Counted from the stretch's first letter, positions 1,081 to 18,934 are shown. The stretch is DNA of 29,809 nucleotides from an uncultured Anaerolinea sp. (GCA_964494055.1 CAZBRI010000001.1:1-29809); one strand, 5' to 3'. A program made the numbers and translations. The notes: a model not told the origin generated them from the sequence alone.

Positions 1081-1143
1081 GGGGTTTTCTCCTTTTTTTA
1101 GCAACTCTTTTTAGTGAGGGTCTTATTTTTCCAAAATGCTGGA

Positions 1144-2007
1144 TTAGACCAGTGCCGCAGCGATTTTCTTGAGTTCCTTCACACTTAAGGCAACAGCCTC
1201 TTCTTCACGCTCTGTCCAATCTGTGTGCGGGTGATCGATTTCAACAGCCAGGAAACCTTTAAAGTTGGCTTTATGCAGCAGCTGAGCAAGTGCCTGGTTG
1301 TTGATTAAACCCTGTCCAACTGGAACACCAGCAAAGAAATGCCAATCAGTGGGCCTGGCGTTTTTATCGGGCATCAGGTCTTTCACATGGGTCGCAAGAA
1401 CATATGGGGCTAATTTTTCCATTCCAGCGATCGGGTCGTCCAAAAGGCGGAGGAAATTTCCTGTATCAAAATTCAAACCAAAATATTCAGAATCCACTTC
1501 AGTCAGTAATTGCAGGATCTCGTCAGAAGTAAAGTCAATGTGATTCTCAACAGCCAGTTTTACACCGAAATCTTTTGCAACGACTACAGCTTTCTTAAAC
1601 ATTTCGACCAGGGCTTTGATTTGCGGACCATGGGGTTCATGGCGAAACATTAAACTGCTTCCGACAACACGCATTACATCTGCGCCTATGGCTTTGGCAT
1701 TGGGAATGCTTGCAACCATTTCATCGTAAGCAGTCCAATTTTGGCCTCGTTCCAGTCCATCGGGATGACCCCAGGCGTAAACTCTATCAAATTTATATTC
1801 ATCAAGCTTCGTTTTTAGATCTTTAAACCATGCCAGGTCAGCTTTGGCAGGAAAAAAACAGGACTCCAACGAAACACCATCCACATCTAATTCTTTCGCG
1901 CGGGCAAGGAAATCCTGCATTGTATAATTTTTGGCGGGTGGTTTTTGATCCGGATACACTTCACCAAAAAAACGGTGATAACAATAACTATCGATTCCTA
2001 TTTTCAT
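1144..2007 (-). CDS. Sugar phosphate isomerase/epimerase family protein (xylose-isomerase-like/AP endonuclease 2 TIM barrel)
   Basis: Four metal-ligand motifs VENH, FDTGN, THVKD and VEID, plus GQGLIN. AGGAGG RBS upstream. Confidence 0.85.
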   Translation of the reverse strand: MKIGIDSYCYHRFFGEVYPDQKPPAKNYTMQDFLARAKELDVDGVSLESCFFPAKADLAWFKDLKTKLDEYKFDRVYAWGHPDGLERGQNWTAYDEMVASIPNAKAIGADVMRVVGSSLMFRHEPHGPQIKALVEMFKKAVVVAKDFGVKLAVENHIDFTSDEILQLLTEVDSEYFGLNFDTGNFLRLLDDPIAGMEKLAPYVLATHVKDLMPDKNARPTDWHFFAGVPVGQGLINNQALAQLLHKANFKGFLAVEIDHPHTDWTEREEEAVALSVKELKKIAAALV

Positions 2008-2104
2008 ATTTGTTCCTCCTGGTTATTTGGTCTGATCTTTTTTATCTATCTCTTTTTTGCCTGAACACAAATTTACGAGATACTAATAATTATCCCGGTA
2101 AACC

Positions 2105-2122
2105 TGTACTTACAGGATAACA
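2105..2122. promoter_or_regulatory. Putative GntR operator, copy 1 (TGTACTTACAGGATAACA)
   Basis: Matches the 18-mers at 2299 and 16196 and includes the palindrome CCTGTA-CT-TACAGG (2103-2116). Lies just downstream of the minus-strand -10 box. Confidence 0.7.
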
Positions 2123-2124
2123 TT

Positions 2125-2153
2125 ATTATAACGGTGAGTTTATTGTCTATCAA
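2125..2153 (-). promoter_or_regulatory. sigma70-type promoter of the leftward operon (TTGATA-17-TATAAT)
   Basis: On the minus strand, TTGATA at 2153-2148, a 17-bp spacer, then TATAAT at 2130-2125. Confidence 0.65.
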
Positions 2154-2263
2154 GTGTTAATTCAAATTCCATTGTCCTTTCCTTTTTACTTTCCAAAAAC
2201 ATCAAATTTTCGATGAGAATTATAAAAATAGCTCATGATTCGACACTTATTTGTCCATTTCCA

Positions 2264-2291
2264 TTGACACCGGTTACAATTTTGCTATAAT
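2264..2291 (+). promoter_or_regulatory. sigma70 consensus promoter of the gntR operon (TTGACA-16-TATAAT with extended -10 TG)
   Basis: TTGACA at 2264-2269, TG at 2283-2284, TATAAT at 2286-2291. Confidence 0.75.
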
Positions 2292-2298
2292 TACAAGT

Positions 2299-2316
2299 TG
2301 TAATAACAGGATTACA
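2299..2316. promoter_or_regulatory. Putative GntR operator, copy 2 (TGTAATAACAGGATTACA)
   Basis: 2295-2316 is 21/22 identical to 16192-16213. It overlaps the palindrome ATTACAA-G-TTGTAAT (2290-2304) and covers the expected TSS. Confidence 0.7.
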
Positions 2317-2344
2317 AGAAACCAACTTCCGGAGAATAACACTT

Positions 2345-3100
2345 ATGGGCGAAACAATTAAATTTGATAGCTATGTGCCTTATTACATTCAGTTAATGGA
2401 TATTCTCAAAGAAAAAATTCAACAAAAGACCTGGCAGCCCGGAGACCAGATTCCAGCGGAACAGGACCTTTGTGAACAATATGGCATAAGCCGTACTGTT
2501 GTCAGGCAGGCATTAAGAGAGATGGAACTTGAAGGTGCTATTAATCGCCGTAAAGGTAAAGGTACCTTTATTGCTATGCCAAAAATCAGTGAGGGCCTTG
2601 CTCAAAAACTGACTGGTTTTTACCAGGACATGATTGAACGTGGTCTTAAACCTGTTACAAAAGTTTTACATCAACTTGTTATTCCAGCCACTGAAAAGGT
2701 TGCCCAATTTCTCAATATCGAACCCGGTACAAAAGTGATCAAAATCCAAAGGCTCAGATATATCAACGATGAACCAATTCAAATGGTCACCACTTATTTG
2801 CCTTATGAGATCTGTCCTCAACTTGCTGAAGTCGATCTAACCAATCAATCCTTGTATCAATACCTGGAAAAAGAATGCGGTGTGTTTATTGCCAAAGGCC
2901 GCAGATACATTGAAGCTGTTCTGGCCAATGAGAATGAAGCTGCCCTGCTGGGTGTTGAAAAAGGGGCTCCGTTACTAATGTTAGACAGCATCAGTTTCTC
3001 TGGTACAGGACAACCACTTGAGTATTATCACGCATTGCACCGCGGCGATAGGTCCAGGTTTGAAGTCGAATTATGGCGTTCGCATGATTTAGAGAATTAG
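2345..3100 (+). CDS. GntR family transcriptional regulator, HutC subfamily (wHTH + UTRA)
   Basis: N-terminal PYYIQL...IPAEQDLCEQYGISRTVVRQAL...GKGTF wHTH. C-terminal UTRA-like domain (IQRLRYINDEP...EYYHALHRGDRSRF). Confidence 0.93.
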   Translation: MGETIKFDSYVPYYIQLMDILKEKIQQKTWQPGDQIPAEQDLCEQYGISRTVVRQALREMELEGAINRRKGKGTFIAMPKISEGLAQKLTGFYQDMIERGLKPVTKVLHQLVIPATEKVAQFLNIEPGTKVIKIQRLRYINDEPIQMVTTYLPYEICPQLAEVDLTNQSLYQYLEKECGVFIAKGRRYIEAVLANENEAALLGVEKGAPLLMLDSISFSGTGQPLEYYHALHRGDRSRFEVELWRSHDLEN

Positions 3101-3151
3101 GCTGTTATTTTTAATAACTAAAAACTTATTCAATACCTGTTGGAGAGTAGA

Positions 3152-4684
3152 ATGCAAAAAAAATACCTGGTTGGAGTTGACCTGGGAACAAGTGCAACAA
3201 AAGCCGCCATCTATCAAATAGATGGAACTTTAGTTGCTGAATCAATGATTGAAGTTCCTCTTGTACATCCAAAACCTGGTGTCGTCGAACAGAATAACGA
3301 CGATTTTTACACTACTGCTGCCCGGAGTGTAAAGCGCTGCATCGACTCAAGCGGTATCAACCCTTCTGAAATTGTAAGCATTGCATTCGATTCTCAAATG
3401 GCCGGTGTCGGTCTTGTTAATGAGGATTTTAAACCTGTCTCGCATTTTGACTCATGGCTGGACATGCGCTGCCAGCCGTTTATTGAATGGATGGACAAAG
3501 ACGCCGGGGAAAGAATCACTCAGCTCACAGGATGTCCTCCAACATGTGATCATGGTCCTAAAATGCTCTGGTGGAAACACGAACACCCTGATCTCTATAA
3601 TCAAACAGCCAAGTTCATTATGCCGGGTACTTATGTTGCCATTCGTGCATCGAGTTTAAAAACTGAAGATACGTTTATCGATCATACCTATATTCATTTT
3701 TCAGGGTTCAGTGATGCCAAAAATGGATCATGGTCAAAGGAACTATGTGATCAATTCGGTCTCGATATTGAAAAACTCCCAAAAATCGTAGATCCCTGTG
3801 ATATTGTCGGTGAATTATCTGAAAATGCAGCCCGGGAATTTGGGCTTCAACCGGGTACTCCTATAGCTGCCGGCGCTGGTGACACAGCAGCAAATGCCCT
3901 TGGTGCCGGAATAGTCAGAAATGGCATGTTGTTTGATGTTGCTGGAACAGCATCTGTATTAGCAGGCTGTACGAATCAGTATGTAGCAGACACTTCCAAC
4001 CGGGCACTACTAACCATGCGTTCTGTAATTCCAGGTTTATGGCACCCGCTTGCCTACATCGGAGGCGGAGGTCTGGCACTAAGATGGTTCCGGGATCAAT
4101 TTTTCAATACTAATTGCGGGTCTCTAAACCAGAACTCCGAAGAAATTTATGACAAGATGCTCTCAATGGCAGAAAATATCAACCCTGGTTCGGATGGGCT
4201 TTTCTTTTCTCCCCATCTGGGCGGACGTATCTGTCCATCCAACCCCGCCATGCGCGGTGCCTGGATTGGAGCATCCTGGTCTCATACCCAGGCTCACTTT
4301 TCCCGGGCCATCCTCGAAAGTGTTGCTTACGAGTATGCATATTATTTAAAGATCTTGAAAAGCCTGATCCCGGATCTTGAGCTGATACAAGCCAGGGTGA
4401 TTGGCGGCGGCGCTCGAAGTCGTTTTTGGAATCAAATTAAAGCAGACATCCTGAATGTTCCCACTCAAAAATTAAATGGCAGCGAATTTGGAACCTGGGG
4501 TTCAGCTATGATCGCTGGAAAAGCAGTTGGGGCAATCAAGGATCTTTCTTCCCATGCTGAAAACACTGCTGTTTTGAGCGGTAACGCGTGTGAACCCGGG
4601 AAGGCAAATCATGAGGTATATAAACCTTTAATTGAGAAATATATTTCATTACAACGTTTGTTGAATGAATTTTATTCAGCATAA
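3152..4684 (+). CDS. FGGY family carbohydrate kinase (xylulokinase-like)
   Basis: Motifs GVDLGTS, WLDMR, GAGDTAA, GERI/GGRICP and GGGARS. ATG at 3152 with GGAG upstream is preferred over the TTG at 3140. Confidence 0.9.
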   Translation: MQKKYLVGVDLGTSATKAAIYQIDGTLVAESMIEVPLVHPKPGVVEQNNDDFYTTAARSVKRCIDSSGINPSEIVSIAFDSQMAGVGLVNEDFKPVSHFDSWLDMRCQPFIEWMDKDAGERITQLTGCPPTCDHGPKMLWWKHEHPDLYNQTAKFIMPGTYVAIRASSLKTEDTFIDHTYIHFSGFSDAKNGSWSKELCDQFGLDIEKLPKIVDPCDIVGELSENAAREFGLQPGTPIAAGAGDTAANALGAGIVRNGMLFDVAGTASVLAGCTNQYVADTSNRALLTMRSVIPGLWHPLAYIGGGGLALRWFRDQFFNTNCGSLNQNSEEIYDKMLSMAENINPGSDGLFFSPHLGGRICPSNPAMRGAWIGASWSHTQAHFSRAILESVAYEYAYYLKILKSLIPDLELIQARVIGGGARSRFWNQIKADILNVPTQKLNGSEFGTWGSAMIAGKAVGAIKDLSSHAENTAVLSGNACEPGKANHEVYKPLIEKYISLQRLLNEFYSA

Positions 4685-4728
4685 CAGATCGTATCGATAA
4701 AGATAAAAGACAAAAACAGGAGTAGTTA

Positions 4729-5775
4729 ATGAAACAACAGGTTCGAATTTGTATGATTGGTGCCGGCAGAGTAGGGAAAAATCATTCCAGGGCTCTTACC
4801 CGCCATATTCCTAACGGAAAGATAGTTGCCCTTGTTGACCCAATGGCAGCAGTACGCGAAGAAACCGCTCGTGACTTTTCAATCGATAATCAATTTAACA
4901 GTATTGAAGAAGCCCTTGAAAAGGTTGAGTTTGAGGCAGTCATTATTACAACACCGACACCAACTCATCTGCCTCTTACAAGAATTGCAGCTGAAAACAA
5001 AAAACATGTTTTTCTTGAAAAACCAATGGCTCTCAACCTGGCTGAATGTGATGAAATAATTGAAGCTACTTCAAGACATTCTGTGATTTTGCAATTGGGA
5101 TTCATGCGTCGTTTTGATCCTGAATTTGTTGCAGCAGCAGAAAGAATACAGGCTGGTGAGATCGGAACCCCAATGATGATCAAGTCAAACACTCACGGCC
5201 CCGGACTTCCCCCGCCCTGGGCATGTGATCTTCGCACCTCCAACGGCATGCTGGCCGAAGTGAACAGCCACGATTGGGATACCACCCGCTGGCTGCTTGG
5301 ATCAAATTATTTGAGAGTCTACACAGAAGTTGCCAACTTTAAAGGTAAGGCAAATAATATTGATATCCCCAATTTCTACGACAATGTCCTGGTAAATATC
5401 AAATTTGAAAGCGGTGCACTCGGCCAAATTTCAGGGATATGCCCCTGTGGATACGGGTATGATGCAAGAGTTGAAATTGTCGGGGATAAAGGTATTATGC
5501 AGATTGGTGAACTGGCTGGACAATCCATCGTTGTCTGTACAAACAGGGACCAGGGTCTGATCACCCCAATTTACCGCACATGGCCGGAACGCTTTGCCTG
5601 GGCATATATTTACGAATTGGAACATTTTGTTGCTTGTGTACAAAATGAAACACACCCCAAAGCTGGCGGCTTTGATGGCCGCTGGGCTGTTGCCGGGGTC
5701 CTCGCCGGAACAAAATCCTTCCTGGAAGAACGCCCTGTGACCCTAAAAGAAATTTTAGACGCTGAAAAAAAATAA
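4729..5775 (+). CDS. Gfo/Idh/MocA oxidoreductase, myo-inositol 2-dehydrogenase (IolG)-like
   Basis: Motifs IGAGRVG, EKP, GFMRRFDP and EVNSHDWD. Confidence 0.88.
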   Translation: MKQQVRICMIGAGRVGKNHSRALTRHIPNGKIVALVDPMAAVREETARDFSIDNQFNSIEEALEKVEFEAVIITTPTPTHLPLTRIAAENKKHVFLEKPMALNLAECDEIIEATSRHSVILQLGFMRRFDPEFVAAAERIQAGEIGTPMMIKSNTHGPGLPPPWACDLRTSNGMLAEVNSHDWDTTRWLLGSNYLRVYTEVANFKGKANNIDIPNFYDNVLVNIKFESGALGQISGICPCGYGYDARVEIVGDKGIMQIGELAGQSIVVCTNRDQGLITPIYRTWPERFAWAYIYELEHFVACVQNETHPKAGGFDGRWAVAGVLAGTKSFLEERPVTLKEILDAEKK

Positions 5776-5787
5776 AGGTAAAAAATT

Positions 5788-6831
5788 ATGTTAGCTGCTG
5801 TTTATCATGGACCCAACGATCTGCGTGTTGAAAATGTTGAAATTCCAAAAATTACTACTGGTGAATTACTCGTCAAAGTGTTGAGTGCCAGTATTTGCGG
5901 TACTGATCTACGGATATTTCATGGAAATCACCGCATGTATGCCCCCGGTACCGTCCGGATCCCCGGTCATGAAGTGGTTGGAACCATAGCTGAAATTGGT
6001 GCAGGAATAACCAATTATTCTATTGGTCAGCGTGTCTTCTGCGCGCCAAATACTGGCTGTGGTCATTGTACCCAATGTGTTTCAGGAAACAATAATCTTT
6101 GCTCAAATTACGATGCGATCGGTGTTACATCCGACGGTGGTTTTGCTGAATATGTTCGCATTCCTGCCAATTCTGTACAACAGGGAAATATCATTCCCAT
6201 CAGTGAAACTGTCGATACAGCTGTTGCCGCTTTAATGGAACCATTTGCTTGTGTGTTGCGCGGGCAAAATGCATTAAACATGAAGCCCGGCGAGGTTGTC
6301 CTTGTCATCGGTGCCGGCCCGATTGGTATCATGCATGCCAAACTTGCCCGAGCCCGTGGTGCCGGCCGCGTCCTAGTCAGTGAACCGATCGCAGAAAGAG
6401 CCATCCAGGCCAGGCGAATGGGAGCAGACAGGGTAATCGATCCGGTAAACGAAAACTTGAAGACAGCAGTCCTCGAAGAAAGTAACGGACGAGGAGCAGA
6501 TCTGATCATAGTTGCTGCGCCAGTCCATGTTGCCCAGGAACAGGCTCTCGATCTGGCCGCCATTGGCGGAAGAATTAATTTTTTTGGCGGGTTACCAAAA
6601 GATAGACCCGCCATCAATTTCGATTCCAACATTGTCCATTACAGGGAACTGATCATTACTGCAACAACCGCCTGCAGCACCGCTGATTGCTGGCAGGCAG
6701 CCCGGATCGTCAATTCAGGCCTGGTTGATCTTTCAGATATTGTCAGCCAACGCTTTCCACTCAATAAAGCTGTAGAAGCATTTACAGCCGCTGAGGACAG
6801 AAAATCTTTAAAAATTGTTTTGGAGCCCTAA
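5788..6831 (+). CDS. Zn-dependent medium-chain (polyol/sorbitol-type) dehydrogenase
   Basis: Catalytic-zinc motifs ICGTD and GHE, structural-zinc motif CGHCTQC..NLC, EP, and Rossmann GAGPIG. Confidence 0.92.
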   Translation: MLAAVYHGPNDLRVENVEIPKITTGELLVKVLSASICGTDLRIFHGNHRMYAPGTVRIPGHEVVGTIAEIGAGITNYSIGQRVFCAPNTGCGHCTQCVSGNNNLCSNYDAIGVTSDGGFAEYVRIPANSVQQGNIIPISETVDTAVAALMEPFACVLRGQNALNMKPGEVVLVIGAGPIGIMHAKLARARGAGRVLVSEPIAERAIQARRMGADRVIDPVNENLKTAVLEESNGRGADLIIVAAPVHVAQEQALDLAAIGGRINFFGGLPKDRPAINFDSNIVHYRELIITATTACSTADCWQAARIVNSGLVDLSDIVSQRFPLNKAVEAFTAAEDRKSLKIVLEP

Positions 6832-6837
6832 CATCAG

Positions 6838-7800
6838 ATGACCTCACATTCTGACTTCCCAATACCGCGGCCAGTGATGACGGTTTTGGGTCCCGTATCA
6901 TATGAGCATCTTGGAATCACTGATGCCCATAACCATCTCTGGATCGAGCCGGTTGATGGTGCAGACAAAAATGCCCCGGTTTTAACTGATTACAATGCGA
7001 TCGTTAAAGAATTGGTGGAATACCGAAGCGATGGGGGAGCTTCAATATTAGACTGTCAGCCAACGGGCTGCGGCCGAAATGGAAATAAACTTTTCACCCT
7101 TTCAAAAGAAACCGGTATAAACATTATTGCAAGTACTGGTTTCCACCGAAAGAAATATTATGCTCCAGATCACTGGATGTTTAAAAATAACTCACAGCAA
7201 TGTTACGATCTGTTTCTCAAAGAGATTCAGGAAGGATTGATCGAAACAGCTGAAACTTCCAACCCGGTTCTTGCCGGCTTTGTAAAAGTTGCAGTAGAAC
7301 AAAATTGGGCAGATTGTTCAAGGGATGCGCTTGATGGAGCAGCCGAAGCAGTAATACAAACTGGGGTTGTTATGGAAATCCATACTGAAAAAGGCGCACT
7401 CGCCGAAAAAGTCAGCCTGTACCTGTGCGATAAAGGCGTGTCACCAGGTCAGTTGGTTTTTTGCCATATGGATAAGCGGCCCGATTTGGGTCTGCATAAA
7501 GAACTTGCCCGGCTCGGTGTACTTCTTGAGTACGACACTTTTTTCCGTCCGAAATATAACCCGGAAGAAACGCTCTGGCCGCTGATCACGCAAATGGTTG
7601 TTGCCGGTTTCGCCGAGAGTATTGCTCTCGCTACAGATATGGCAGAATCCGAATCATATCATTTTATCGGCGGGGGTCCTGGTCTTGCCAGTTTCCCCTC
7701 CAAAATTCAAAAGAGATTAATTGAAAATGAAATTCCGGGTAAAGCAAGAACTCACTTATTGGGCGGTAATATCGCTCGAAGGCTGTCCGGGATTAAATAA
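6838..7800 (+). CDS. Phosphotriesterase-related amidohydrolase (PTE/Php family; likely lactonase)
   Basis: N-terminal VMTVLGPV...LGITDAHNHL (HxH), STGFH, bridging K (GFVKVA), H (IHTE), H (CHMD) and D (LATD). Confidence 0.88.
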   Translation: MTSHSDFPIPRPVMTVLGPVSYEHLGITDAHNHLWIEPVDGADKNAPVLTDYNAIVKELVEYRSDGGASILDCQPTGCGRNGNKLFTLSKETGINIIASTGFHRKKYYAPDHWMFKNNSQQCYDLFLKEIQEGLIETAETSNPVLAGFVKVAVEQNWADCSRDALDGAAEAVIQTGVVMEIHTEKGALAEKVSLYLCDKGVSPGQLVFCHMDKRPDLGLHKELARLGVLLEYDTFFRPKYNPEETLWPLITQMVVAGFAESIALATDMAESESYHFIGGGPGLASFPSKIQKRLIENEIPGKARTHLLGGNIARRLSGIK

Positions 7801-7818
7801 TTTATTTGGAGAAAATAC

Positions 7819-8403
7819 ATGTTAGATGTACCTTTTAGTTTTATTTTGCCCATGCCTCAAGTGATCCCTTCCAGGGTAGACAATCATATCCAGCGCAGAT
7901 TATCTGCATTAAAAGGTCAGTTTTCTGACCAGGCAGCTTACAAATCAATGCTTGATCTTGAAGACCAATTGATCTATGAAGTGTATGAGATCAAACGACC
8001 AGAAGTTGAAGGGGAACTTTTAATGGGAATTTCCATTGTGCACCCCGGAAAAGTTGGGAATGAATTTTTTATGACAAAGGGTCATTTTCATTCTGTTTTG
8101 GAAACTTCAGAAATATATTACTGTATGCGTGGTGAAGGATATATGGTTATGGAAACTCCAGAAGGTGATACTTCTGTTGAGCGTTTATCCCCCGGTCAAA
8201 TACTTTATGTTCCCCCTCGATGGGCTCACCGCAGCGTTTGTACATCCAGGCAGGAAGACCTTGTTACATTCTTCGCATACCCTGCCAACGCAGGCCACGA
8301 TTATGGAACCATTGAAACACAGGGCTTTAAGAAAATTGTTATTGACGGACAAAACGGCCCGCTGATCATTGATAACCCTCGCTCCCTGAATCGGGGGGCA
8401 TGA
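7819..8403 (+). CDS. Cupin-type (archaeal-like) glucose-6-phosphate isomerase family protein
   Basis: Motifs PGKVGNEFFMTKGHFH, EIYY..GEG, PPRWAH and GHDYGTI, as in Thermococcales cupin PGI. Confidence 0.88.
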   Translation: MLDVPFSFILPMPQVIPSRVDNHIQRRLSALKGQFSDQAAYKSMLDLEDQLIYEVYEIKRPEVEGELLMGISIVHPGKVGNEFFMTKGHFHSVLETSEIYYCMRGEGYMVMETPEGDTSVERLSPGQILYVPPRWAHRSVCTSRQEDLVTFFAYPANAGHDYGTIETQGFKKIVIDGQNGPLIIDNPRSLNRGA

Positions 8404-9368
8404 TGGATCTGAAAAAATGCCGTGTACTGGTTACGCCTACATCGTATGGGAAAAATGATGCCAGGCTGAAAACCGAATTGGAAGCACAAGTTGGTGAAGT
8501 AATTTACAATCCGACTGGTAAACCTCTCTCTTCAAAAGATGTTGCGTCCCTGATCAAAGGGGTGGATGGTTATATTGCCGGTTTGGATGTTATTGATGAA
8601 GAAGCCTTAAAAAACGCAGATAAACTCAAGGTGATCTCGCGTTATGGCGTTGGTGTGGACAGTGTTGACCTGAAAGCAGCCGCTGCCAGGGGAATCACAG
8701 TCACAAATACCCCTGGGGCAAATTCTGTTTCAGTCGCCGAACTCGCTCTCGGAATGATTTTATGTCTTGCACGACAAATCCCTGAAGCTGATAAAGCGGT
8801 TCATGAAGGAAAATATCCACGCCTTACAGGTGTCAGCCTGGAAGGAAAAACAATAGGAATTCTTGGCCTTGGTGCTATTGGTAAACAGCTTGCCCGGCGC
8901 CTGTCCGGTTTTGACTGCCGGATAATCGCTTACGATCCATTTCCAGATATGACATTTGCGGAAAAAAACCAGGTGAAATTTGCATCTTTGAGTGAAGTTG
9001 CTGCACAGGCTGATTTTTTAAGCCTTCATCTTCCATTACTGCCTGAAACAAAACTGCTTGTCAATGAAACATTTTTATACAAGATGAAAAAAGGTTCCTG
9101 CCTGGTCAATACATCCCGCGGGGAAGTAGTGGACGAAACAGCTTTATTTAATGCCCTTCAAAGCGGTCAAATTAAAGGAGCTGGCCTGGATGCTTTTTCT
9201 GTGGAACCGCCAGACCCATCCAATCCCCTGCTCTCTTTGCCGCAGGTAATCGCAACACCTCACCTAGGTGCACAGACGGATGGTGCAACCAGTAACATGG
9301 GATGGTTTGCCATGAAAGATTGCCTGTCAGTATTAAAAAATGAACAACCTGTTTACAAGGTTGCCTGA
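8400..9368 (+). CDS. D-isomer-specific 2-hydroxyacid dehydrogenase (phosphoglycerate-dehydrogenase-like, no ACT domain)
   Basis: Motifs SRYGVG, NTPGANSVSVAE, GLGAIG, NTSRG and TPHLG. ATGA overlap with the upstream gene. Confidence 0.92.
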   Translation: MMDLKKCRVLVTPTSYGKNDARLKTELEAQVGEVIYNPTGKPLSSKDVASLIKGVDGYIAGLDVIDEEALKNADKLKVISRYGVGVDSVDLKAAAARGITVTNTPGANSVSVAELALGMILCLARQIPEADKAVHEGKYPRLTGVSLEGKTIGILGLGAIGKQLARRLSGFDCRIIAYDPFPDMTFAEKNQVKFASLSEVAAQADFLSLHLPLLPETKLLVNETFLYKMKKGSCLVNTSRGEVVDETALFNALQSGQIKGAGLDAFSVEPPDPSNPLLSLPQVIATPHLGAQTDGATSNMGWFAMKDCLSVLKNEQPVYKVA

Positions 9369-9392
9369 GAATTTCTGTTTTCGGAGTGAAAA

Positions 9393-10037
9393 ATGAATAA
9401 ACTTGATGTATTGGAAAAAGTTAAAGAATTAGGTTTGCTGGCAGTTATCAGGGGTCCATCACCGGAACTAACAGTAAAAATGGTTGAAGCCCTGGTCAAT
9501 GGCGGTGTATTAGGGATCGAAATCACTTACAGTACCCCGAATGCTGAGGAAGTTGTGACAACTCTCTCAAAAAAATTTGGGGACAGTATCGTGCTTGGCA
9601 TGGGAACATTAACAAGTCCCAGCCAAGTACAAACAGCCCGGGCTGCCGGCGCAAATTTTTTAGTCAGCCCAATCTGTGAACCAACACTTGTTAAAGCAAT
9701 GGCAGAAAGCGGTTTGCTCTGTATGGCAGGAAGCCTGACACCGACCGAGGTTTTTCAGGCGTACACTCTTGGTGCCGATGTTGTTAAGATATTTCCGGGG
9801 TCACTCGGTGGTCCGGCTTATGTAAAAGCTCTCAAGGGTCCATTCCCCCAGATCCCTATGATGCCAACCGGTGGTGTGAATGCCGGCAATATGGCTGAAT
9901 GGTTCGCCACCGGGGTTGTAGCGGTAGGTGCTGGCAGTGAATTATGTCCGCCGCAGCTTGCCAAAGATGGAAAATTCGATGAAATATCCAAACGGGCTGC
10001 TGATTTTGTGCAGGTCGTTAATGCTTCCAGGAAATAA
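9393..10037 (+). CDS. eda: KDPG/KHG aldolase family (2-keto-3-deoxy-phosphogluconate aldolase-like)
   Basis: Motifs LAVIR, IEIT (catalytic Glu), GMGT, VKIFP (Schiff-base Lys) and MPTGGV. Confidence 0.9.
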   Translation: MNKLDVLEKVKELGLLAVIRGPSPELTVKMVEALVNGGVLGIEITYSTPNAEEVVTTLSKKFGDSIVLGMGTLTSPSQVQTARAAGANFLVSPICEPTLVKAMAESGLLCMAGSLTPTEVFQAYTLGADVVKIFPGSLGGPAYVKALKGPFPQIPMMPTGGVNAGNMAEWFATGVVAVGAGSELCPPQLAKDGKFDEISKRAADFVQVVNASRK

Positions 10038-10051
10038 TAAAAGGAGTAAAA

Positions 10052-11029
10052 ATGAACAGCAGTATGAACGTTACCAGCCCGCATTATCCAATCGTCACAA
10101 AAAATGTCCCTACATTTTATTTCATCGGCGTAACGACCGGGAAATCATCGATCATGAAAGTCTTTCCACTATGGATGAAAGTCCTCGGCCGTGAAGAAGT
10201 TATCATGGAAGGTATGGATCGAAAAATTCATGATGAAAGAGATGCTTATAGAAGTGCCGTTGCACAGATCAAGTACGACCCGATGTCATTAGGTGCACTG
10301 GTTACCACCCACAAAATTGATTTATTAACTGCTTCCAGGGATATGTTTGATTATCTTGATCCCTATGCCCTCCTTACCGATGAGGTTTCAAGCATTTCGA
10401 AACTGGATGGCAGGCTCGAAGGACATGCAAAAGACCCGCTTACATCAGGTGCCAGCCTGGATGCGATTATTGAAAAAGACTATTTTGGTAAAACAAACGG
10501 GGATGTATTATCTTTTGGGGCGGGGGGTTCTGCCATCGCCACCCTGCTGCATTTGATCAACAAAAAAGACAAAGGCGACCGCCCAAAAAAGTTTACACTC
10601 GTCAATCGCTCACAGGGGCGTTTGGATCACGCCCGCAGCATGGTTAGTTCTTTGAAAACAGACATTGAAATTGAATATATCTGCAATTCAGATCCCAAAG
10701 TTAATGACGCCATCATGGAAAAATTCCCGCCATACAGTGTGATTATCAATGCAACAGGCATGGGGAAAGATACCCCTGGATCCCCGATCACCTGGGAAGG
10801 AAAATTCCCGATGCACAGCCTCTCATGGGAATTTAATTACCGTGGAGAACTTGATTACCTTCATCAATCACTCGCCCAGGTGGAAAGCCGGAATATTAAA
10901 GTCGAAGATGGCTGGTTATACTTTGTCCATGGTTGGACACAGGTTGTAGCTCAGGTACTGCACGTTGACCTGACACCTGAATTATTTGATAAATTAAACC
11001 AGGCAGCTTCCACCGTACGCGGTAAATAA
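10052..11029 (+). CDS. Divergent shikimate-dehydrogenase-fold NAD(P) oxidoreductase
   Basis: Motifs VTTHK (cf. AroE VTxPxK), GHAKD (cf. GxNTD), FGAGGSA, VNRS and INATGMG. Confidence 0.75.
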   Translation: MNSSMNVTSPHYPIVTKNVPTFYFIGVTTGKSSIMKVFPLWMKVLGREEVIMEGMDRKIHDERDAYRSAVAQIKYDPMSLGALVTTHKIDLLTASRDMFDYLDPYALLTDEVSSISKLDGRLEGHAKDPLTSGASLDAIIEKDYFGKTNGDVLSFGAGGSAIATLLHLINKKDKGDRPKKFTLVNRSQGRLDHARSMVSSLKTDIEIEYICNSDPKVNDAIMEKFPPYSVIINATGMGKDTPGSPITWEGKFPMHSLSWEFNYRGELDYLHQSLAQVESRNIKVEDGWLYFVHGWTQVVAQVLHVDLTPELFDKLNQAASTVRGK

Positions 11030-11052
11030 ATTATATTCTTTCAAAGAATATC

Positions 11053-11089
11053 AAATGAACACATTGTTATTTCTGCAATGTGTTCATTT
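11053..11089. terminator. Bidirectional intrinsic terminator between convergent genes
   Basis: Perfect 14-bp inverted repeat AAATGAACACATTG / CAATGTGTTCATTT with a 9-nt loop. It overlaps the stop codon of the minus-strand gene. Confidence 0.7.
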
Positions 11090-12451
11090 TATTAACCGGG
11101 CAGATGCATGATCAATAATGTTCCAGATTTGCTCGACCCAGTCTTTATGTTCTGGTTTCATTAATACCGACCGCATACAAGTAATGGTTTCTTCATCCTG
11201 CTCCATATCACCTGGCAAGTCAAAGAGACTTATGGGAAGGTTTGCCAGCGCCAGGTAAAGGTGCTCTTTTTCTGCTTCTTCAAACAGTTTTTTCGCCAGT
11301 TCAGATGCAGCACTAACTTTTTTCGCCCGAAATATCCAGATGATGATGTCTAATTCCGGATTAAATGCTGTAATAAAACGCTTGTCCAGGTATAACTTAT
11401 TCCATAAAATCAAAGCCGCTTCCCGTCCGGCTTCCAAACCTTTGGCAAATTCTCCTCCCTTAACCAAAGGAAGCAGCTTTTGGGTTGCCCACAATCCAAC
11501 TGCAGCAGCCCCTGGACGTGAGCACTCAAGACTGATCTCTCCAAGATGTAATTCTGACGAACTGAAATAAGTGTACGGGGAATTGTGTTTATAAAAACGA
11601 CCAACAGATGGATCTTTAAATAAGATACACCCGCAACCATATGGCTGCAATCCATGTTTATGTGGATCAACGACGATTGAATCAGCCTCATGAATATGTT
11701 CATATATTTCCGCTGTTTGGGCACTCAGATTACCGGCCAATTTAAAATAACCACCATAAGCTGAATCAACGTGAATTCTGAAACCGTATTTTTTACGCAA
11801 TTTTAGAATATCGAGAAGCGGATCAATTGATCCGGTTGCTGTTGTACCTATTGTGACGACGACAGTTCCAATCCCGCCTCTCTCGAGTCGATTTTGAAGG
11901 GCATTCAAGTCCATCCTGCCGAGCCTGTCACTCGCGATAGATTCATAATTTAGTTTCAAGACAGAACTGATCCGGCTGTGTGTGTAGTGAGCCTGGTCTG
12001 AAGCCAGCACAATACCATCAGGATTGATCTTTCCTGCAACCCATAAAGCTTCGAGGTTTGCCATTGTTCCGCCGCCAGTTAAGTGGCCCAGGTATGTATC
12101 CCAGCCAAACATGCCGGCAATTTCCCGGACTGCTTCTTTTTCCATTTGAGAACTGGCTTTACCGCCATCCAGTGCATGGTTGTTTGGATTGATCCACATG
12201 GCAAGCATATAAGCAAGGCGGGCTGCTGGATGAGGCGGTTTGAGCATCTGCCCTGCATACAACGGATGAAAGTAAGGATAATTATCCTGAAGCCGTTGAG
12301 CAGTTTCAAGCAAAACACTTTCCAGCTGATTGTTTATGGGGTTTTTTTCGGCAGGCTGAAGATAAGAAAAACCCGAATCCATTTTTTCAATTGCTTTTCT
12401 TAGTATATCCAGCGTCTCAAGATCTAAATTGGAGAATGATTGATTATTCAT
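11084..12451 (-). CDS. Group II PLP-dependent decarboxylase (GAD/TDC/aspartate-1-decarboxylase family)
   Basis: Motifs GGTMANLEAL, HYTH, GTTATGSID, HVDSAYGG and DPHKH (PLP Lys). Confidence 0.9.
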   Translation of the reverse strand: MNNQSFSNLDLETLDILRKAIEKMDSGFSYLQPAEKNPINNQLESVLLETAQRLQDNYPYFHPLYAGQMLKPPHPAARLAYMLAMWINPNNHALDGGKASSQMEKEAVREIAGMFGWDTYLGHLTGGGTMANLEALWVAGKINPDGIVLASDQAHYTHSRISSVLKLNYESIASDRLGRMDLNALQNRLERGGIGTVVVTIGTTATGSIDPLLDILKLRKKYGFRIHVDSAYGGYFKLAGNLSAQTAEIYEHIHEADSIVVDPHKHGLQPYGCGCILFKDPSVGRFYKHNSPYTYFSSSELHLGEISLECSRPGAAAVGLWATQKLLPLVKGGEFAKGLEAGREAALILWNKLYLDKRFITAFNPELDIIIWIFRAKKVSAASELAKKLFEEAEKEHLYLALANLPISLFDLPGDMEQDEETITCMRSVLMKPEHKDWVEQIWNIIDHASARLIK

Positions 12452-12514
12452 TTTTATTCCTGGTAAATAGATTTATTCAAACCTGCTCAATTTATGTTTA
12501 CTTCACAAAGAGAA

Positions 12515-13507
12515 TTACCCCGGGTACCATACAACACGCGGATCATCAGCTGACCGTTTGTATTCCCAGGACTCGTCTATCATCCTTTTCAGGTCATATT
12601 CCGGACGCCATCCTAAAAGAAATTTAGCCTTTGTATTATCCAGCCAGGTGGAATGAAACGGCGTTTTTATATCAACAAGCGGCAGACCCCGGCTGACAGC
12701 CAGGTATTCACCAAGTTTCCTATAATCAACCGGTTCATCCATACATATATTAAATAACTGCTGATGAGCTTTCGGATTCCCCAGCGCCAACAGGATCGCA
12801 CTAACCAGGTCATTCACATGAATAAAATTTCTTTTTACCGGTTTACTGTCTGGATCGAGCATGATCGGGATAGTTGAACTCCGTTGGTAAGCAGCTGCCT
12901 GTTCAGGACCAACCAGGTCTCGCCAGCGCGGACCTCCAAAAACATCATCTCCAAAAGACAATTGATATTTAAAATCATCTTTCTCCATGATCCATGGGGC
13001 TCTCAAGCAGCAGCCATTCAAATTATATTGAATATAATACTGCTCCAACATGACCTCTTCCAGCACTTTTGATAGTGCGTAACAACCCGGGTAGGCAGAA
13101 TGCTTTTGGGTTTCAGTGACCGGGATGGCATGTGGATAAACAAAATGACCCACTCCTGCGTCGCCGCCAATCAGGATAAACTGTTGAAAAGCGGGACTTG
13201 TTCGGCAGGTTTCAAGCAGCCAGAACAGGCCTTTGACAGCAACATCCATTATTTGATCCGGGGTATCTTTACAGGTAGCAAGGTGAACAACATGGGTCAC
13301 CCCATCCATGGCAGTTTCAACTGTCTGACGGTCTTCAATTGACCCCCGGACAATCTCCAAACGGGCATTTCCTTTCAAAACTCGGTGATGGCACAAAGCT
13401 CGAATCTGGAATTTATCAAAATTATGATCATCCAGCAGCCTATTTATTAAAGTCTGCCCGACTTTTCCGGCAGCGCCGGTAATTAATATTCGATCTTGAA
13501 GAGACAT
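12515..13507 (-). CDS. Extended SDR, NAD-dependent epimerase/dehydratase family
   Basis: Motifs ITGAAGKVG, HLA, YALSK (YxxxK) and IHVNDL. ATG at 13507 with GGAG RBS. Confidence 0.87.
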   Translation of the reverse strand: MSLQDRILITGAAGKVGQTLINRLLDDHNFDKFQIRALCHHRVLKGNARLEIVRGSIEDRQTVETAMDGVTHVVHLATCKDTPDQIMDVAVKGLFWLLETCRTSPAFQQFILIGGDAGVGHFVYPHAIPVTETQKHSAYPGCYALSKVLEEVMLEQYYIQYNLNGCCLRAPWIMEKDDFKYQLSFGDDVFGGPRWRDLVGPEQAAAYQRSSTIPIMLDPDSKPVKRNFIHVNDLVSAILLALGNPKAHQQLFNICMDEPVDYRKLGEYLAVSRGLPLVDIKTPFHSTWLDNTKAKFLLGWRPEYDLKRMIDESWEYKRSADDPRVVWYPG

Positions 13508-13680
13508 TTTTACTCCAAAAATTTCACAACTCAAATAAGGCTTTAAGCCGCACTATTAACGGTAAACCCGTCTAATTGTATTCCAAAGTTGCTAAAAACC
13601 CCCTTGGTGCCAGGAAACACTTATTTGATTTTCCAGTTTTTTGAATAAGTTCAAATTTTTATATCTTAACACTAATAACA

Positions 13681-13716
13681 AATAGACCCTGCCATAGCAC
13701 ATTGACAGGGTCTATT
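13681..13716 (-). terminator. Intrinsic terminator downstream of the deoC-like/FGGY operon
   Basis: Inverted repeat AATAGACCCTG / CAGGGTCTATT, extendable with G-U pairs on the minus strand and followed by a U-rich tract, about 25 nt past the stop at 13741. Confidence 0.65.
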
Positions 13717-13740
13717 AATCAAAAAGTTTTTGCATCCAAT

Positions 13741-15285
13741 TTATGGATTTGTTTGAATACTTTTTAATAGATCACCGATCTCAGCCAAATAATTTCCTGC
13801 TTTCAGAAAAACAGGCATAATTTTTTCGTAGATTGCCACATTTTCCTGGATAGGATCCGTAAAATCTTCTACTTCATGTATTTCATCAATAATTTCGAAA
13901 TCCTTCCAATATCCTGTACCCACTGCAGCCAGGGCAGCTGCTCCAAGCGCTGCTGCCTGTTGGTCTATATTTGTTTTGATAATTCGAAGTTTAAATAGGT
14001 CTGCATAAATTTGCCTCCATAGTTTGCTGCGGCTCCCGCCGCCTACAACCACGATCTCATCGGTAACAGGCATCTTTTTCCTTAACTCATCAAGGGCTAT
14101 CCGCATCTCCATCGCGACACCTTCCATGGCTGCCCGGATCAAATCTGATCTTTTAGTACCAAGATCCAACCCCAAAAACGCACCCCGGATATTAATGCTG
14201 GCATCAATCGATGAACCTCCAGCCAGGCTGGGGTTAAAGAGGATCCCGTTTGAACCAACAGGTTCTGTGGAAGCTAGTGATGTCATCAAATCATATACGT
14301 CCATTCCATCCTTATTGGCTTGTTCAACAAGATCAGCACACACCTGGTCACGCAGCCAGCGGAAACTCGACCCTGAAGAAAAAACCGGGATTGCTGAATT
14401 AAACAGTCCCGGGATAACCGCTGTAAAAACAAACGGTTTAAAGTGATCATCCAATATGGGTGATTTTGTTGTCACCGCAATCCAGCTTGAGGATCCCTGA
14501 GAATTATAAATTCTGCCGTCTTTGATGTTCCGGGCACCCAGGGCCATGCAGGAATTATCTACACCCCCAGCCGCAACTTTGACATTGGTGTGCAGTCCAA
14601 GCTCCCGGGCTGCTGAAGCTGTTAATGTACCGATTATTTCAGAGGATGGTTTAATTTCCGGGAAGATTTCCCTTGGTAGACCGGAAGCGCTGATCAATTG
14701 ATCAGAATAATCCCACTTCAGAAGATCATAAACACCTGATCCGGAAGCATAAGAAAAATCCGTACAGGTACTTCCAGTCAATCGATAATTTATATAATCT
14801 TTGGTTCCGATCACGCTATGGATCTTTTTAAACATCTCGGGTTCATTATCCCGGTACCACATGATCTTAAAAACCGAATAAAGCGGGGCTGGAAAACCAT
14901 TACCTGTCAGGTTGTACCACTCCCTTTCCGAAATGTTTTTGAACATAGCCTGTGCCTGAACGACCGCACGGGAATCAGACCAGATGGGTGAACTCTCCCT
15001 TAATAATTTCCCGTTTTTATCAAGCGGGATTACTCCCAGGCTGTGACCCGATATCCCTAACCCAACAATATCATTAACATCGATCTTTGATTTTTGGAGA
15101 AGTCCCCGGGTGCTTTCAACCACAGCCGTCCACCAATCTTCAGGATACTGTTCATGCCAGCCAGGCCGGGTATAGTGTGTTGCATACGGGACAAATGTTT
15201 CAGCAGCGCACCTGCCGTCTTCAGAATAAAGTGATGCCTTGTTGCCGCCAGTACCCAGATCAAATGCAATAAAAAAACGTCCCAT
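13741..15285 (-). CDS. FGGY family carbohydrate kinase (xylulokinase-like), second paralogue
   Basis: Motifs FDLGTGG, WSDSR, FSYASGS, GGVDNS and GGGSRS. ATG at 15285 with GGAG RBS. Confidence 0.9.
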   Translation of the reverse strand: MGRFFIAFDLGTGGNKASLYSEDGRCAAETFVPYATHYTRPGWHEQYPEDWWTAVVESTRGLLQKSKIDVNDIVGLGISGHSLGVIPLDKNGKLLRESSPIWSDSRAVVQAQAMFKNISEREWYNLTGNGFPAPLYSVFKIMWYRDNEPEMFKKIHSVIGTKDYINYRLTGSTCTDFSYASGSGVYDLLKWDYSDQLISASGLPREIFPEIKPSSEIIGTLTASAARELGLHTNVKVAAGGVDNSCMALGARNIKDGRIYNSQGSSSWIAVTTKSPILDDHFKPFVFTAVIPGLFNSAIPVFSSGSSFRWLRDQVCADLVEQANKDGMDVYDLMTSLASTEPVGSNGILFNPSLAGGSSIDASINIRGAFLGLDLGTKRSDLIRAAMEGVAMEMRIALDELRKKMPVTDEIVVVGGGSRSKLWRQIYADLFKLRIIKTNIDQQAAALGAAALAAVGTGYWKDFEIIDEIHEVEDFTDPIQENVAIYEKIMPVFLKAGNYLAEIGDLLKSIQTNP

Positions 15286-15307
15286 ATTAGTTCTCCAAAT
15301 TGAAAAT

Positions 15308-16006
15308 CTAAAATTCTGTGAAACCACCGGGAAATTCAGAACATTCTTGTAATATCAGTGAGGCAGAACGTATACCAATTCCAAAACGCCTTGCACCTCT
15401 GCGGTACATTTCCAGTATCGTATCAAGACTTCTTACACCGCCGGAAGCTTTTATCAAAGCCGAATCTCCGATAATAGATTTTATTAAACTCACATTTTCC
15501 AGGGTAGCACCAGTCGGGGTATATCCGGTTCCAGTTTTAATAAAAGCTGCCCCGGCCTTTACAGCCAATTCACTTCCCAACCTTATTTGATCGTTATTCA
15601 AATAATGGCATTCCAGTATAACTTTAACTGGTCTGCCCTCCGCCGCATCAATGACGGCCTTTATGTCATCAAAGACATATTTTTCATCACCCGAAATTAA
15701 TTTCCCAATACTGATCACCATATCCAGCTCATCACATTCCAGCTGAACAAGTTCCCGGGCTTCTGCAGACTTAATCCTGGTAGTTTGTCCCCCGCTTGGG
15801 AAGCCAACATTTCCAGAAATTTTTATCCCGGGTGTCTCTTTTAATAATTCTTTCGCATAATTTGTTTGACTAGGCAGGGTTGTTACCAGGAAGCAGTGAT
15901 GCTGCATCGCAACCCTGACAGTCTCTTGAATAATGTTATCGCTGTGATCAGGTTGAACAGCACTAAGATCGATCATCTGTGCAATGTCGTAATAAGTCAA
16001 TTTCAT
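15308..16006 (-). CDS. deoC: Deoxyribose-phosphate aldolase (DeoC) family class I aldolase
   Basis: Motifs VGFPSG, ELDMVI, VKVILE, IKTGTG (Schiff-base Lys) and IKASGGVR. ATG at 16006 with AAAGGTG RBS. Confidence 0.88.
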   Translation of the reverse strand: MKLTYYDIAQMIDLSAVQPDHSDNIIQETVRVAMQHHCFLVTTLPSQTNYAKELLKETPGIKISGNVGFPSGGQTTRIKSAEARELVQLECDELDMVISIGKLISGDEKYVFDDIKAVIDAAEGRPVKVILECHYLNNDQIRLGSELAVKAGAAFIKTGTGYTPTGATLENVSLIKSIIGDSALIKASGGVRSLDTILEMYRRGARRFGIGIRSASLILQECSEFPGGFTEF

Positions 16007-16162
16007 GGGTTCACCTTTTATTATGGAAACAACCTTTTTTTGTTGAAGAAAATTCCCCAACAGCAAAAAACTTATCTCCTGAAAATTTTCCAATATTGAA
16101 ATACCAATTCTTGGATTACTTGATATTCTATTTTTCCTAATAAATCTGGTAGCTTAGCGCTA

Positions 16163-16191
16163 TTGCTATATAACGATCTATTAATTATAAT
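16163..16191 (+). promoter_or_regulatory. sigma70-type promoter of the 16385-20176 operon (TTGCTA-17-TATAAT)
   Basis: TTGCTA at 16163-16168 and TATAAT at 16186-16191. Confidence 0.6.
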
Positions 16192-16195
16192 AAGT

Positions 16196-16213
16196 TGTAA
16201 TTACAGGATTACA
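16196..16213. promoter_or_regulatory. Putative GntR operator, copy 3 (TGTAATTACAGGATTACA)
   Basis: Contains the perfect palindrome TGTAATTACA. Near-identical to the motifs at 2105 and 2299. Confidence 0.7.
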
Positions 16214-16220
16214 GTATTAT

Positions 16221-16249
16221 ATTATAACTTTTCATTTTTCATTGATCAA
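16221..16249 (-). promoter_or_regulatory. sigma70-type promoter of the deoC-like/FGGY operon (TTGATC-17-TATAAT)
   Basis: On the minus strand, TTGATC at 16249-16244 and TATAAT at 16226-16221. Confidence 0.55.
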
Positions 16250-16384: not shown

Positions 16385-17356
16385 ATGAAAATCGGTTTAT
16401 TTACAGCAACATACATGGACAAAAGTATTGAGGATGTATGTCAATATGCTTCCAGCCTTGGTTATGAAGCAGTTGAAATTCCTGCATTTGCTAATAATCC
16501 TCACCTTGACATCGAAGCGATAATCAAAGGTGAAAACGCTAAAAACTTGAAAAAGATGGTCAACAGCCATGGTTTGATCATTTCGGCACTTGCAAATCAT
16601 CCAGAAGGTCAGGTGGTCGGCGGGCCTTATGGAAAAGATACCGATTTTATTTGCACTGGAACGAAAGAAGAAAAAATTAAATTTGGCACTGAAAGAATGA
16701 TTAAAACTGCTCAAGCTGCCAACGCCCTGGAGGTGCCGGTTGTCACTGGCTTTGTCGGTGTTGAAAACTTTGGACGTTTCTTTCCGTGGCCTTACTCAAA
16801 AGGCTGGACAGAAATGGAAATTGATTTTGTGGAGAATTGGGGAAAGATCCTTGATAAATTCGCAGAATACGGTGTCAAATTTGCTCATGAGCCTCATCCA
16901 AATGAATTGATCTACAATACAGAAACCGCTGTCAAGAGTATTGAGTTATTGGGCGGGCGCAAAGAATGGGGTTTCAATTTCGATCCGGCCAACTTGATTT
17001 ACCTCGGTATAGATGTTGAAAATTTTATCGACACACTTGGTAAACGAATTTTTCACGTGCATGCCAAAGATGGCGAAATCGTTTCTCACAACGTCAAACG
17101 TTCAGGCACTATCCCGCAGGGTGATTGGCAGCGCCTGGACAGGGGATTCCGTTTCAGGATTCCTGGCTGGGGTTCTGTCCCGTGGAAGAAAGTTATTACT
17201 GAACTGTCAATGATCGGCTACAACTATGTCATGAGTTACGAACACGAAGACGTAACCATGAGCCGGCAAGACGGCATCACCAAAACGATTGCCTACCTCA
17301 AACCCTTGATGATTGAGCAGCCTTATGAAGGCAGAAACGACGTTCTTTTCAATTAG
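16385..17356 (+). CDS. Sugar phosphate isomerase/epimerase family TIM-barrel protein (IolE/IolH-like)
   Basis: Metal-ligand motifs AHEPHP, NFDPAN, HVHAKD and SYEHED, plus FRIPGWGSVPW. Confidence 0.87.
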   Translation: MKIGLFTATYMDKSIEDVCQYASSLGYEAVEIPAFANNPHLDIEAIIKGENAKNLKKMVNSHGLIISALANHPEGQVVGGPYGKDTDFICTGTKEEKIKFGTERMIKTAQAANALEVPVVTGFVGVENFGRFFPWPYSKGWTEMEIDFVENWGKILDKFAEYGVKFAHEPHPNELIYNTETAVKSIELLGGRKEWGFNFDPANLIYLGIDVENFIDTLGKRIFHVHAKDGEIVSHNVKRSGTIPQGDWQRLDRGFRFRIPGWGSVPWKKVITELSMIGYNYVMSYEHEDVTMSRQDGITKTIAYLKPLMIEQPYEGRNDVLFN

Positions 17357-17386
17357 TAAGTCTATTTTATTCCCGGGAGAATTTCC

Positions 17387-18445: not shown

Positions 18446-18464
18446 TTTTACTGGAAGAAAATAA

Positions 18465-18854: not shown

Positions 18855-18934
18855 AAATTTGGTTTTGATTCACTCATTAAAGGTTATTCCCGGAATAATG
18901 CAAAATTATCTTTGTCACGGAGGTATGTAATTCA

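Follow-up and report, generated by a model that had tools for sequence, protein, structure and literature searches.

A HutC-type GntR regulon predicted in Anaerolineae, with an unusually strong third half-site in its operators

Most binding sites of the HutC subfamily of GntR regulators have a GT-N4-AC spacing, with the consensus NyGTMTAKACNy (PMC4494728). The NagR dimer contacts a 14-bp span, and within this protein Arg48 reads the G at -4 and Arg38 the G at -5 (PMC4333415). Extra boxes 7-12 nt from the palindrome centre, on one side or on both, have been described for the FadR, HutC and YtrA groups; they are weaker, with about half the score of true half-sites (PMC4494728), and the role of such additional half-sites was left open by the 2015 survey (Suvorova et al. 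2015, PMC4494728). SdhR has a 26-bp 'palindrome with additional symmetry', TCTTATGTCTTATATAAGACATAAGA (PMC4494728), and the HutC-subfamily regulators FarR/MngR (TGTATTAWTT) and NagQ (TGGTATT) bind direct repeats (as cited in PMC4494728). Here we analyze three copies of an 18-bp element that lie near a GntR gene in a 29,809-nt stretch of DNA (GCA_964494055.1 CAZBRI010000001.1:1-29809; at its full length, the window) from a metagenome-assembled genome of an Anaerolineae member (Chloroflexota) found in lake water.

A reading of the window made from the sequence alone had proposed that these copies define a GntR regulon across 14 kb. By comparing the locus with those of related genomes, we find that the 18-mers are very probably the operators of the adjacent HutC-type GntR repressor (2345-3100). 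The motif, where it lies, its conservation and its co-occurrence with the gene cluster are shown; which protein binds it, that binding represses, the effector and the stoichiometry are inferred. The regulon is solid but ordinary; its third half-site is unusually strong.

Three operator copies and the promoters they overlap

The predicted operators, the regulator and the promoters are as follows.

2105-2122, unstranded: operator O1, TGTACTTACAGGATAACA; in the same place in more than 20 genomes
2299-2316, unstranded: operator O2, TGTAATAACAGGATTACA; putative autoregulatory site, nearly invariant in the alignment of relatives
16196-16213, unstranded: operator O3, TGTAATTACAGGATTACA, which equals the consensus; between the -10 boxes of the face-to-face promoters P4 and P3
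2345-3100, plus strand: GntR-family, HutC-subfamily regulator of 251 aa with a winged helix-turn-helix (wHTH) and a UTRA domain; presumed repressor
2125-2153, minus strand: predicted promoter P1, TTGATA-17-TATAAT, 11 of 12 matches; would drive unit U1
2264-2291, plus strand: predicted promoter P2, TTGACA-16-TGcTATAAT (extended -10), 12 of 12 matches; would drive the GntR-led unit U2
16221-16249, minus strand: predicted promoter P3, TTGATC-17-TATAAT, 10 of 12 matches; would drive unit U3
16163-16191, plus strand: predicted promoter P4, TTGCTA-17-TATAAT, 10 of 12 matches; would drive unit U4

The three 18-mers read exactly as the sequence-only reading had given them. O2 and O3 share AAGTTGTAAT(A/T)ACAGGATTACA, or 21 of 22 bp, and all three copies are intergenic (intervals 2008-2344 and 16007/16094-16384). 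A promoter scan places TATAAT directly before each copy, for O1 on the minus strand (TATAAT-AA-TGTTATCCTGTAAGTACA), and from the -10 box to the element is 2-7 bp at each of four predicted promoters of strong sigma-70 type, including that of GntR itself. The earlier claim that four units are under operator control is thus matched by four promoters overlapped by operators. With start sites assumed to lie about 7 nt past the -10 box, O1 spans about -4 to +14 of the predicted P1 transcript; O2, 7 bp downstream of its -10 box, spans about +1 to +19 of the P2 transcript; and O3 spans both predicted starts of the face-to-face P4 and P3.

Within the window, a search allowing up to 3 mismatches returned only O1 to O3 and the reverse reading of O1. 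By chance about 0.02 such matches are expected, and none of 100 shuffles reached the observed count. The draft genome to which the window belongs (G000; 3.55 Mb, 647 contigs, 77% complete) has no further intergenic copy with up to 2 mismatches, the sole other match at this threshold lying inside an open reading frame (ORF) on contig C96. Near-matches on C96, C193, C220, C328, C162, C15, C57 and C283 were considered and set aside; most lie in long ORFs, and none has a promoter-like context.

Annotation with Pfam and NCBIfam identifies in the regulator a wHTH domain (PF00392, E 1.4e-19, residues 16-76) and a UTRA domain of the chorismate-lyase fold that covers the full profile length (PF07702, E 3.5e-46, residues 98-236). 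Its best matches in the Protein Data Bank, DasR and NagR/YvoA, are full-length at about 1e-45. Because it scores below every NCBIfam equivalog cut-off (PhnF, 142 vs 157; HutC, 139 vs 220; TreR, 119 vs 212; also PhnR, LSA1692 and others), it is an unnamed HutC-type regulator. No other transcription factor is encoded in the window.

Conservation of the motif and the identity of its binder

GntR orthologues with 55-79% identity were collected from 20 species genomes, and more were added later. The intergenic region between GntR and XI_TIM1, the divergently transcribed gene for a xylose isomerase-like (XI-like) TIM barrel, was aligned with MAFFT across 17 genomes whose GntR proteins are 68-79% identical.

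The divergent XI_TIM1/GntR arrangement and both operators are kept at all loci that have an orthologue of at least 68% identity. Phylogenetic footprinting of this region, which the sequence-only reading had proposed, makes O1 and O2 stand out: the only conserved blocks in the 17-genome alignment are the XI_TIM1 Shine-Dalgarno sequence, O1 with its -10 box, a -35 box, TTGACA, TATAAT and O2, and the remainder of the region cannot be aligned. Both the -10 and the -35 block of P1 are kept, the TTGACA and TATAAT of P2 are invariant or nearly so, and 15 of the 16 other genomes carry O2 unchanged, the last (L002) differing from it at one base. The spacing between O1 and O2 ranges from 132 to 240 bp across 22 genomes with no 10.5-bp phasing, and phased looping between the two copies is not supported.

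Across genomes, the motif follows the regulator. All 23 genomes whose GntR orthologue is at least 57% identical have it, and none of the 43 that lack such an orthologue does. When 41 relatives, about 165 Mb in all, were searched with at most 1 mismatch allowed, it turned up in G000 and G023 only, which are the sole bearers of an orthologue. All 14 genomes reached via orthologous loci have the motif, and so do 7 of 7 others whose orthologue reaches 57% identity, whereas it is missing from all 4 with either no homologue or one of at most 51% identity. The motif is present upstream of the orthologous operons, where its absence would have refuted the sequence-only reading. In six genomes (G023, G041, G043, G044, G055 and G060) a site orthologous to O3 lies before the gene for the second XI-like TIM barrel, XI_TIM2. 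That the motif recurs at matching positions wherever a related genome encodes the repressor makes it very probable that the repressor uses it as its operator.

We propose that a GntR dimer would bind the central palindrome (C/T)TGTAA-TTACAGG via its winged-helix domains, and that an extra TGTnAT half-site 8 bp outward, on one or both sides, would add to binding (complete element, TGTAATCC-TGTAATTACA-GGATTACA). As the operator spans the transcription start, bound repressor would block open-complex formation or promoter escape at P1 to P4. The repressor's own promoter is included, which would give autoregulation, and O3 alone would serve P3 and P4, which face each other. On contig C24 of the same genome, a fifth promoter, that of a ROK/ATP-binding cassette (ABC) transporter operon, would be under a weaker copy. 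The effector would be an intermediate of the sugar or polyol pathway, most likely the phosphorylated product of an FGGY kinase, which would bind the UTRA domain and release the DNA.

The copy on C24 came from a genome-wide scan, which the sequence-only reading had suggested as a way to find the missing transporter. C24 carries orthologues of the genes that follow the Gfo/Idh/MocA gene Gfo1 in relatives. After a 443-aa protein of no known family come TTGACT-N17-TATAAT, GA and then TGTTATGTTGTAATTACT (C24:1650-1667), a degenerate fourth copy. Downstream lie genes for a ROK protein, an XI-like TIM barrel, an ABC ATPase, two permeases, a Peripla_BP_4 binding protein, two further XI-like TIM barrels and a Gfo oxidoreductase. 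The same type of promoter and site is found in L025-L028 and L039, and is degenerate or missing in L021, L023, L024 and L031. This site is likely a fourth, weaker operator, and the CUT2 transporter encoded on C24 is likely the missing transporter. In three relatives (G042, G049 and G052), a perfect 26-bp operator, TATAATCCTGTAAT(T/G)ACAGGATAACA, precedes another CUT2-type ABC transporter, consisting of a Peripla_BP_4 binding protein, an ATPase and BPD_transp_2 permeases. An orthologue of the binding protein of this transporter was sought in our own draft genome and not found.

Just upstream of the -35 box of the ROK/ABC promoter, C24 (L175) has a perfect 39-bp palindrome at 1565-1603, AAGTACAAGTTATGACAAT-T-ATTGTCATAACTTGTACTT. 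Its core, TTATGACA..TGTCATAA, is kept in 10 genomes and is unique in our own. This palindrome is probably the ROK regulator's own operator, in which case the ROK/ABC operon would be under dual control.

Several points weigh against assigning the 18-mers to GntR. Distant GntR orthologues (43-57% identity; L035, L037, L163 and L164) have no copy with up to 4 mismatches in the locus DNA searched. The promoters are consensus matches only, in a phylum whose promoters have been little studied, and the RNA run from the source sample provides no start sites and is uninformative on regulation. A canonical dimer footprint of about 14 bp misses the third half-site, whose role has no structural precedent. 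Finally, the ROK protein co-occurs with the motif almost as well as GntR does, so the phyletic pattern alone cannot assign the binder.

This last point raises the alternative that the 18-mers are operators of another regulator of the cluster, most plausibly the 435-aa ROK protein on C24, which is syntenic in relatives, and that GntR binds elsewhere. Of the 22 motif-bearing genomes, 21 have a ROK orthologue, the four without the motif have none or only a distant match, and a degenerate copy lies within the ROK promoter itself. However, that copy is the least conserved of the GntR-type copies, being degenerate or missing in several genomes, whereas upstream of GntR the motif is nearly invariant. 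A more promising ROK site is the conserved palindrome peculiar to the ROK promoter (TTATGACA-N-TGTCATAA); three motif copies occur in G060, where no ROK match was found; and the 4-nt spacing of GT-N4-AC is the signature of the HutC subfamily. We consider a ROK operator improbable and retain GntR as the probable binder.

Gene content and history of the cluster

The four units and the terminator that borders one of them are as follows.

47-2007, minus strand: unit U1, with the XI-like TIM barrel (1144-2007) and a Gfo/Idh/MocA oxidoreductase (to 1104); 3' end cut by the contig end, syntenic in relatives
3140-11029, plus strand: U2 structural genes, for an FGGY kinase, Gfo/Idh/MocA protein, Zn-type alcohol dehydrogenase (Zn-ADH), PTE-like (phospho)lactonase, cupin-type phosphoglucose isomerase (PGI), 2-hydroxyacid dehydrogenase, KDPG-type aldolase and AroE-like protein of 325 aa; order as in relatives
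13741-16006, minus strand: unit U3, with a DeoC-type aldolase (15308-16006, ATG being the probable start) and, at 13741-15327, a second FGGY kinase; the ancestral order was colinear, and here the unit is inverted
16385-20176, plus strand: unit U4, with the second XI-like TIM barrel, a Zn-ADH, a glyoxalase-fold protein and an OYE-type flavin oxidoreductase; identical genes and order in relatives
13681-13716, minus strand: intrinsic-terminator-like hairpin, a 14-bp stem followed by a T-rich tail; ends U3 after the FGGY kinase

The proposed 14-kb regulon holds for the four units with operators and not for two unrelated genes in its middle. These genes (11084-13534), for an NAD-epimerase and a PLP-decarboxylase, lie beyond the terminator at 13716-13681, have no operator and are missing from the orthologous clusters; they are outside the regulon. 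Taken together, the prediction ties a large and otherwise puzzling set of sugar or polyol enzymes into one co-regulated pathway, which helps substrate assignment. The predicted regulon, with one repressor and its operator, five promoters, some twenty catabolic genes and a transporter, is well supported and can be tested; in Anaerolineae, a phylum-level group, hardly any transcription factor has been studied by experiment.

For the DeoC-type aldolase, the ATG at 16006, preceded by AAAGGTGA, is a more likely start than the alternative TTG at 16093. With this start, the 5' leader from P3 is about 200 nt, and that from P4 before 16385 is about 185 nt; neither leader matched an Rfam family.

In many relatives the genes run on one strand, in the order GntR, the U2 genes up to the AroE-like gene, DeoC, the second FGGY kinase (FGGY2), XI_TIM2, the second Zn-ADH (Zn-ADH2), the glyoxalase and OYE. 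Relative to all sampled relatives, the window has the DeoC-FGGY2 segment (13681-16093) inverted and the two foreign genes, NAD-epimerase and PLP-decarboxylase, inserted. The inversion is shared by no sampled relative, including G023 of the same genus. O3 is the product of this rearrangement, in which an ancestral single operon was split and part of it inverted. As the inversion is peculiar to this genome, P3 has no orthologue elsewhere and is a consensus match only. Genomes with a colinear operon (L078, L079, L081, L083, L084 and L112) have no site before XI_TIM2, and split clusters with an internal promoter carry a copy there (L059, L060, L063, L077, L082 and L171). The comparison shows operator copying upon operon splitting or inversion.

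In L077 the DeoC unit also has its own copy, at 165-190 before DeoC: TGTAACTACATGATTACAGGATAAAA, in which the first half-site is followed by three successive nTACA-type boxes with an 8-bp period. Judging by this sequence, the half-site repeat can apparently be extended, as L077 suggests.

At its left end the window is bounded by an artefact. Bases 1-46 are a remnant of an Illumina adapter (...ACACTCTTTCCCTACACGACGCTCTTCCGATCT), identical to bases 1-46 of C24 (L175), and in public runs the depth over this remnant spikes above 10^4. What looks like a stop codon of the Gfo/Idh/MocA ORF, at 25-27, sits within the adapter, so the gene is cut by the contig end. On synteny only, C24 would adjoin the left end of the window. 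One public contig that runs beyond the window end continues with sequence absent from this assembly.

A metatranscriptome from the source sample (one RNA run) contains five short, low-depth contigs over U1 and U2, without 5' ends. They map to 562-727, 1749-1930, 9049-9210, 10117-10491 and 10739-11016. The gene cluster may be weakly expressed in situ, with DNA carry-over as the alternative.

The third half-site and comparison with known regulators

The operator consensus, TGTAAT-T-ACAGG-ATTACA, contains three half-sites with one profile, TGTnAT, in agreement with the inverted pair TGTAA/TTACA and second ATTACA 8 bp further on that had been noted from the sequence. H1 occupies positions 1-6, H2 positions 5-10 (inverted) and H3 positions 13-18 (inverted, as a direct repeat of H2 at 8 bp). 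Among 23 distinct variants, the fourth base of the half-site is variable, and G, T, A and C at its other positions change rarely or never. The predicted HutC-type core is present as T-GT-AATT-AC-A, with the published spacing of the subfamily, and its G2, T3, C9 and A10 never vary. H3 equals H1 and H2 in conservation (T21 G21 T23 n A23 T23 of 23 variants); sites were found by pattern, which biases these counts to some extent, and the pattern-independent 17-genome alignment agrees with them.

Three loci (L034, L072 and L073) have a symmetric element with four half-sites, TGTAATCC-TGTAATTACA-GGATTAC(A/T), and O1 with its left flank forms an imperfect 26-bp palindrome (GGTAAACC TGTACTTACA GGATAACA). 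As read from these sequences, four TGTnAT half-sites placed 8 bp apart make up the full operator, a palindrome of 26 bp, and the copies in the window hold three of them.

These variants bear on whether the element might act in RNA rather than DNA, its outer arms UGUAAU and AUUACA forming a 5'-terminal stem-loop that stabilizes the mRNA or modulates translation. Each predicted transcript would indeed carry the element at about +1 to +19, and in O2 and O3 the outer arms can pair without a mismatch. But the stem would consist of 6 A/U-rich pairs and be weak, two of the six pairs are mismatched in O1, and positions 4 and 15 are complementary in 10 of the 23 distinct variants, without covariation. 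Both orientations relative to transcription are used, and where the element partly overlaps the -10 box (L161 and the transporter sites) it would be partly untranscribed. Rfam has no match in the window. An RNA-level role is highly unlikely.

The position of the motif, which always adjoins a -10 box, could also mean that RNA polymerase or a sigma factor reads it, for instance as the discriminator or the initially transcribed sequence in a specialised class of promoters. Yet its distance to the box ranges from a one-base overlap (L161) to 7 bp, and at the transporter sites (L072 8274-8299; L073 about 8289-8314; three relatives) the outer half-site, TATAAT, is the -10 box itself. The motif is used in both orientations, keeps to a single gene cluster in each genome, is missing from 43 related genomes and is palindromic, like the site of a dimeric transcription factor. 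We give this explanation very little credence. H3 in particular is promoter-distal at O2 and at O3 on the plus strand, and promoter-proximal at O1 and at the C24 site. As both its orientation and its spacing vary with respect to the promoter, H3 belongs to the operator and not to the promoter.

With the motif taken as the GntR operator, the protein can be compared with NagR residue by residue in a sequence alignment. The two align without gaps through the DNA-binding domain, with Arg50 equivalent to Arg48, Gly71 to the wing Gly69 and Gln40 to Arg38. The operator keeps a G at -4 and has a T at -5; Gln40 in place of Arg38 is consistent with this T. Gln40 is kept in all close orthologues and is Ala or Val in more distant users of the motif.

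The core and its CC/GG flanks make up a 14-bp span, equal to that contacted by the NagR dimer, and H3 lies beyond it. The palindrome is centred between positions 5 and 6, and the centre of H3 is 10 nt away, within the range described for extra boxes. Such an architecture is known in kind, whereas an extra box as strong as the core differs from what the survey described. Because the third and fourth half-sites fall outside the footprint of about 14 bp and on another face of the helix, binding as a higher-order assembly (two dimers, a tetramer, or a dimer in alternative registers) is conceivable; we regard it as a tentative and rather doubtful possibility. If true, it would be a mode of DNA binding structurally undescribed for the HutC subfamily and a clean model for the unexplained additional half-sites of the GntR family. 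The possible use by a HutC-type protein of half-sites 8 bp beyond the canonical footprint is the most interesting point of this locus, and a third half-site that is unusually strong and orientation-independent makes it a good system for studying the role of such sites.

In the literature library searched, no paper was found that pairs the core sequence with a GntR regulator. The closest described systems are NagR (YvoA) of Bacillus subtilis and DasR of Streptomyces (structures 4WWC and 4ZS8), which share with this locus the wHTH and UTRA domains, a GT-N4-AC palindrome over the promoter, and an autoregulated sugar-catabolic regulon with a transporter, here predicted. The operator core differs, being TGTAATTACA here and TGGTCTAGACCA in the dre sites of NagR and DasR, and the equivalent of Arg38 is Gln. 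Unlike dre sites, which are single 16-bp elements, the operators here have a third, or a third and fourth, half-site 8 bp outward with core-level conservation, and the pathway is not one of amino-sugar use.

TreR, the repressor of the trehalose operon of Bacillus subtilis, has tre operators with a TTGTATATACAA core downstream of the promoter. The GntR system resembles it in its A/T-rich TGTA...TACA palindrome, in a site just downstream of the -10 box and in the phosphosugar effector proposed here. The protein is not TreR, given 119 bits against the NCBIfam cut-off of 212, and the gene content differs.

As in FarR/MngR and NagQ sites, TGTA-type boxes occur here as direct repeats, namely H2 and H3 (ATTACAGG-ATTACA). 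Those operators have no central canonical palindrome, whereas here the direct repeat is added to one. Finally, the SdhR site likewise combines a central palindrome with outward half-site repeats, and the full form of our operator (L034, L072 and L073) has the same layout of four half-sites, but with a period of 8 bp rather than 7 bp and in the phylum Chloroflexota (Anaerolineae).

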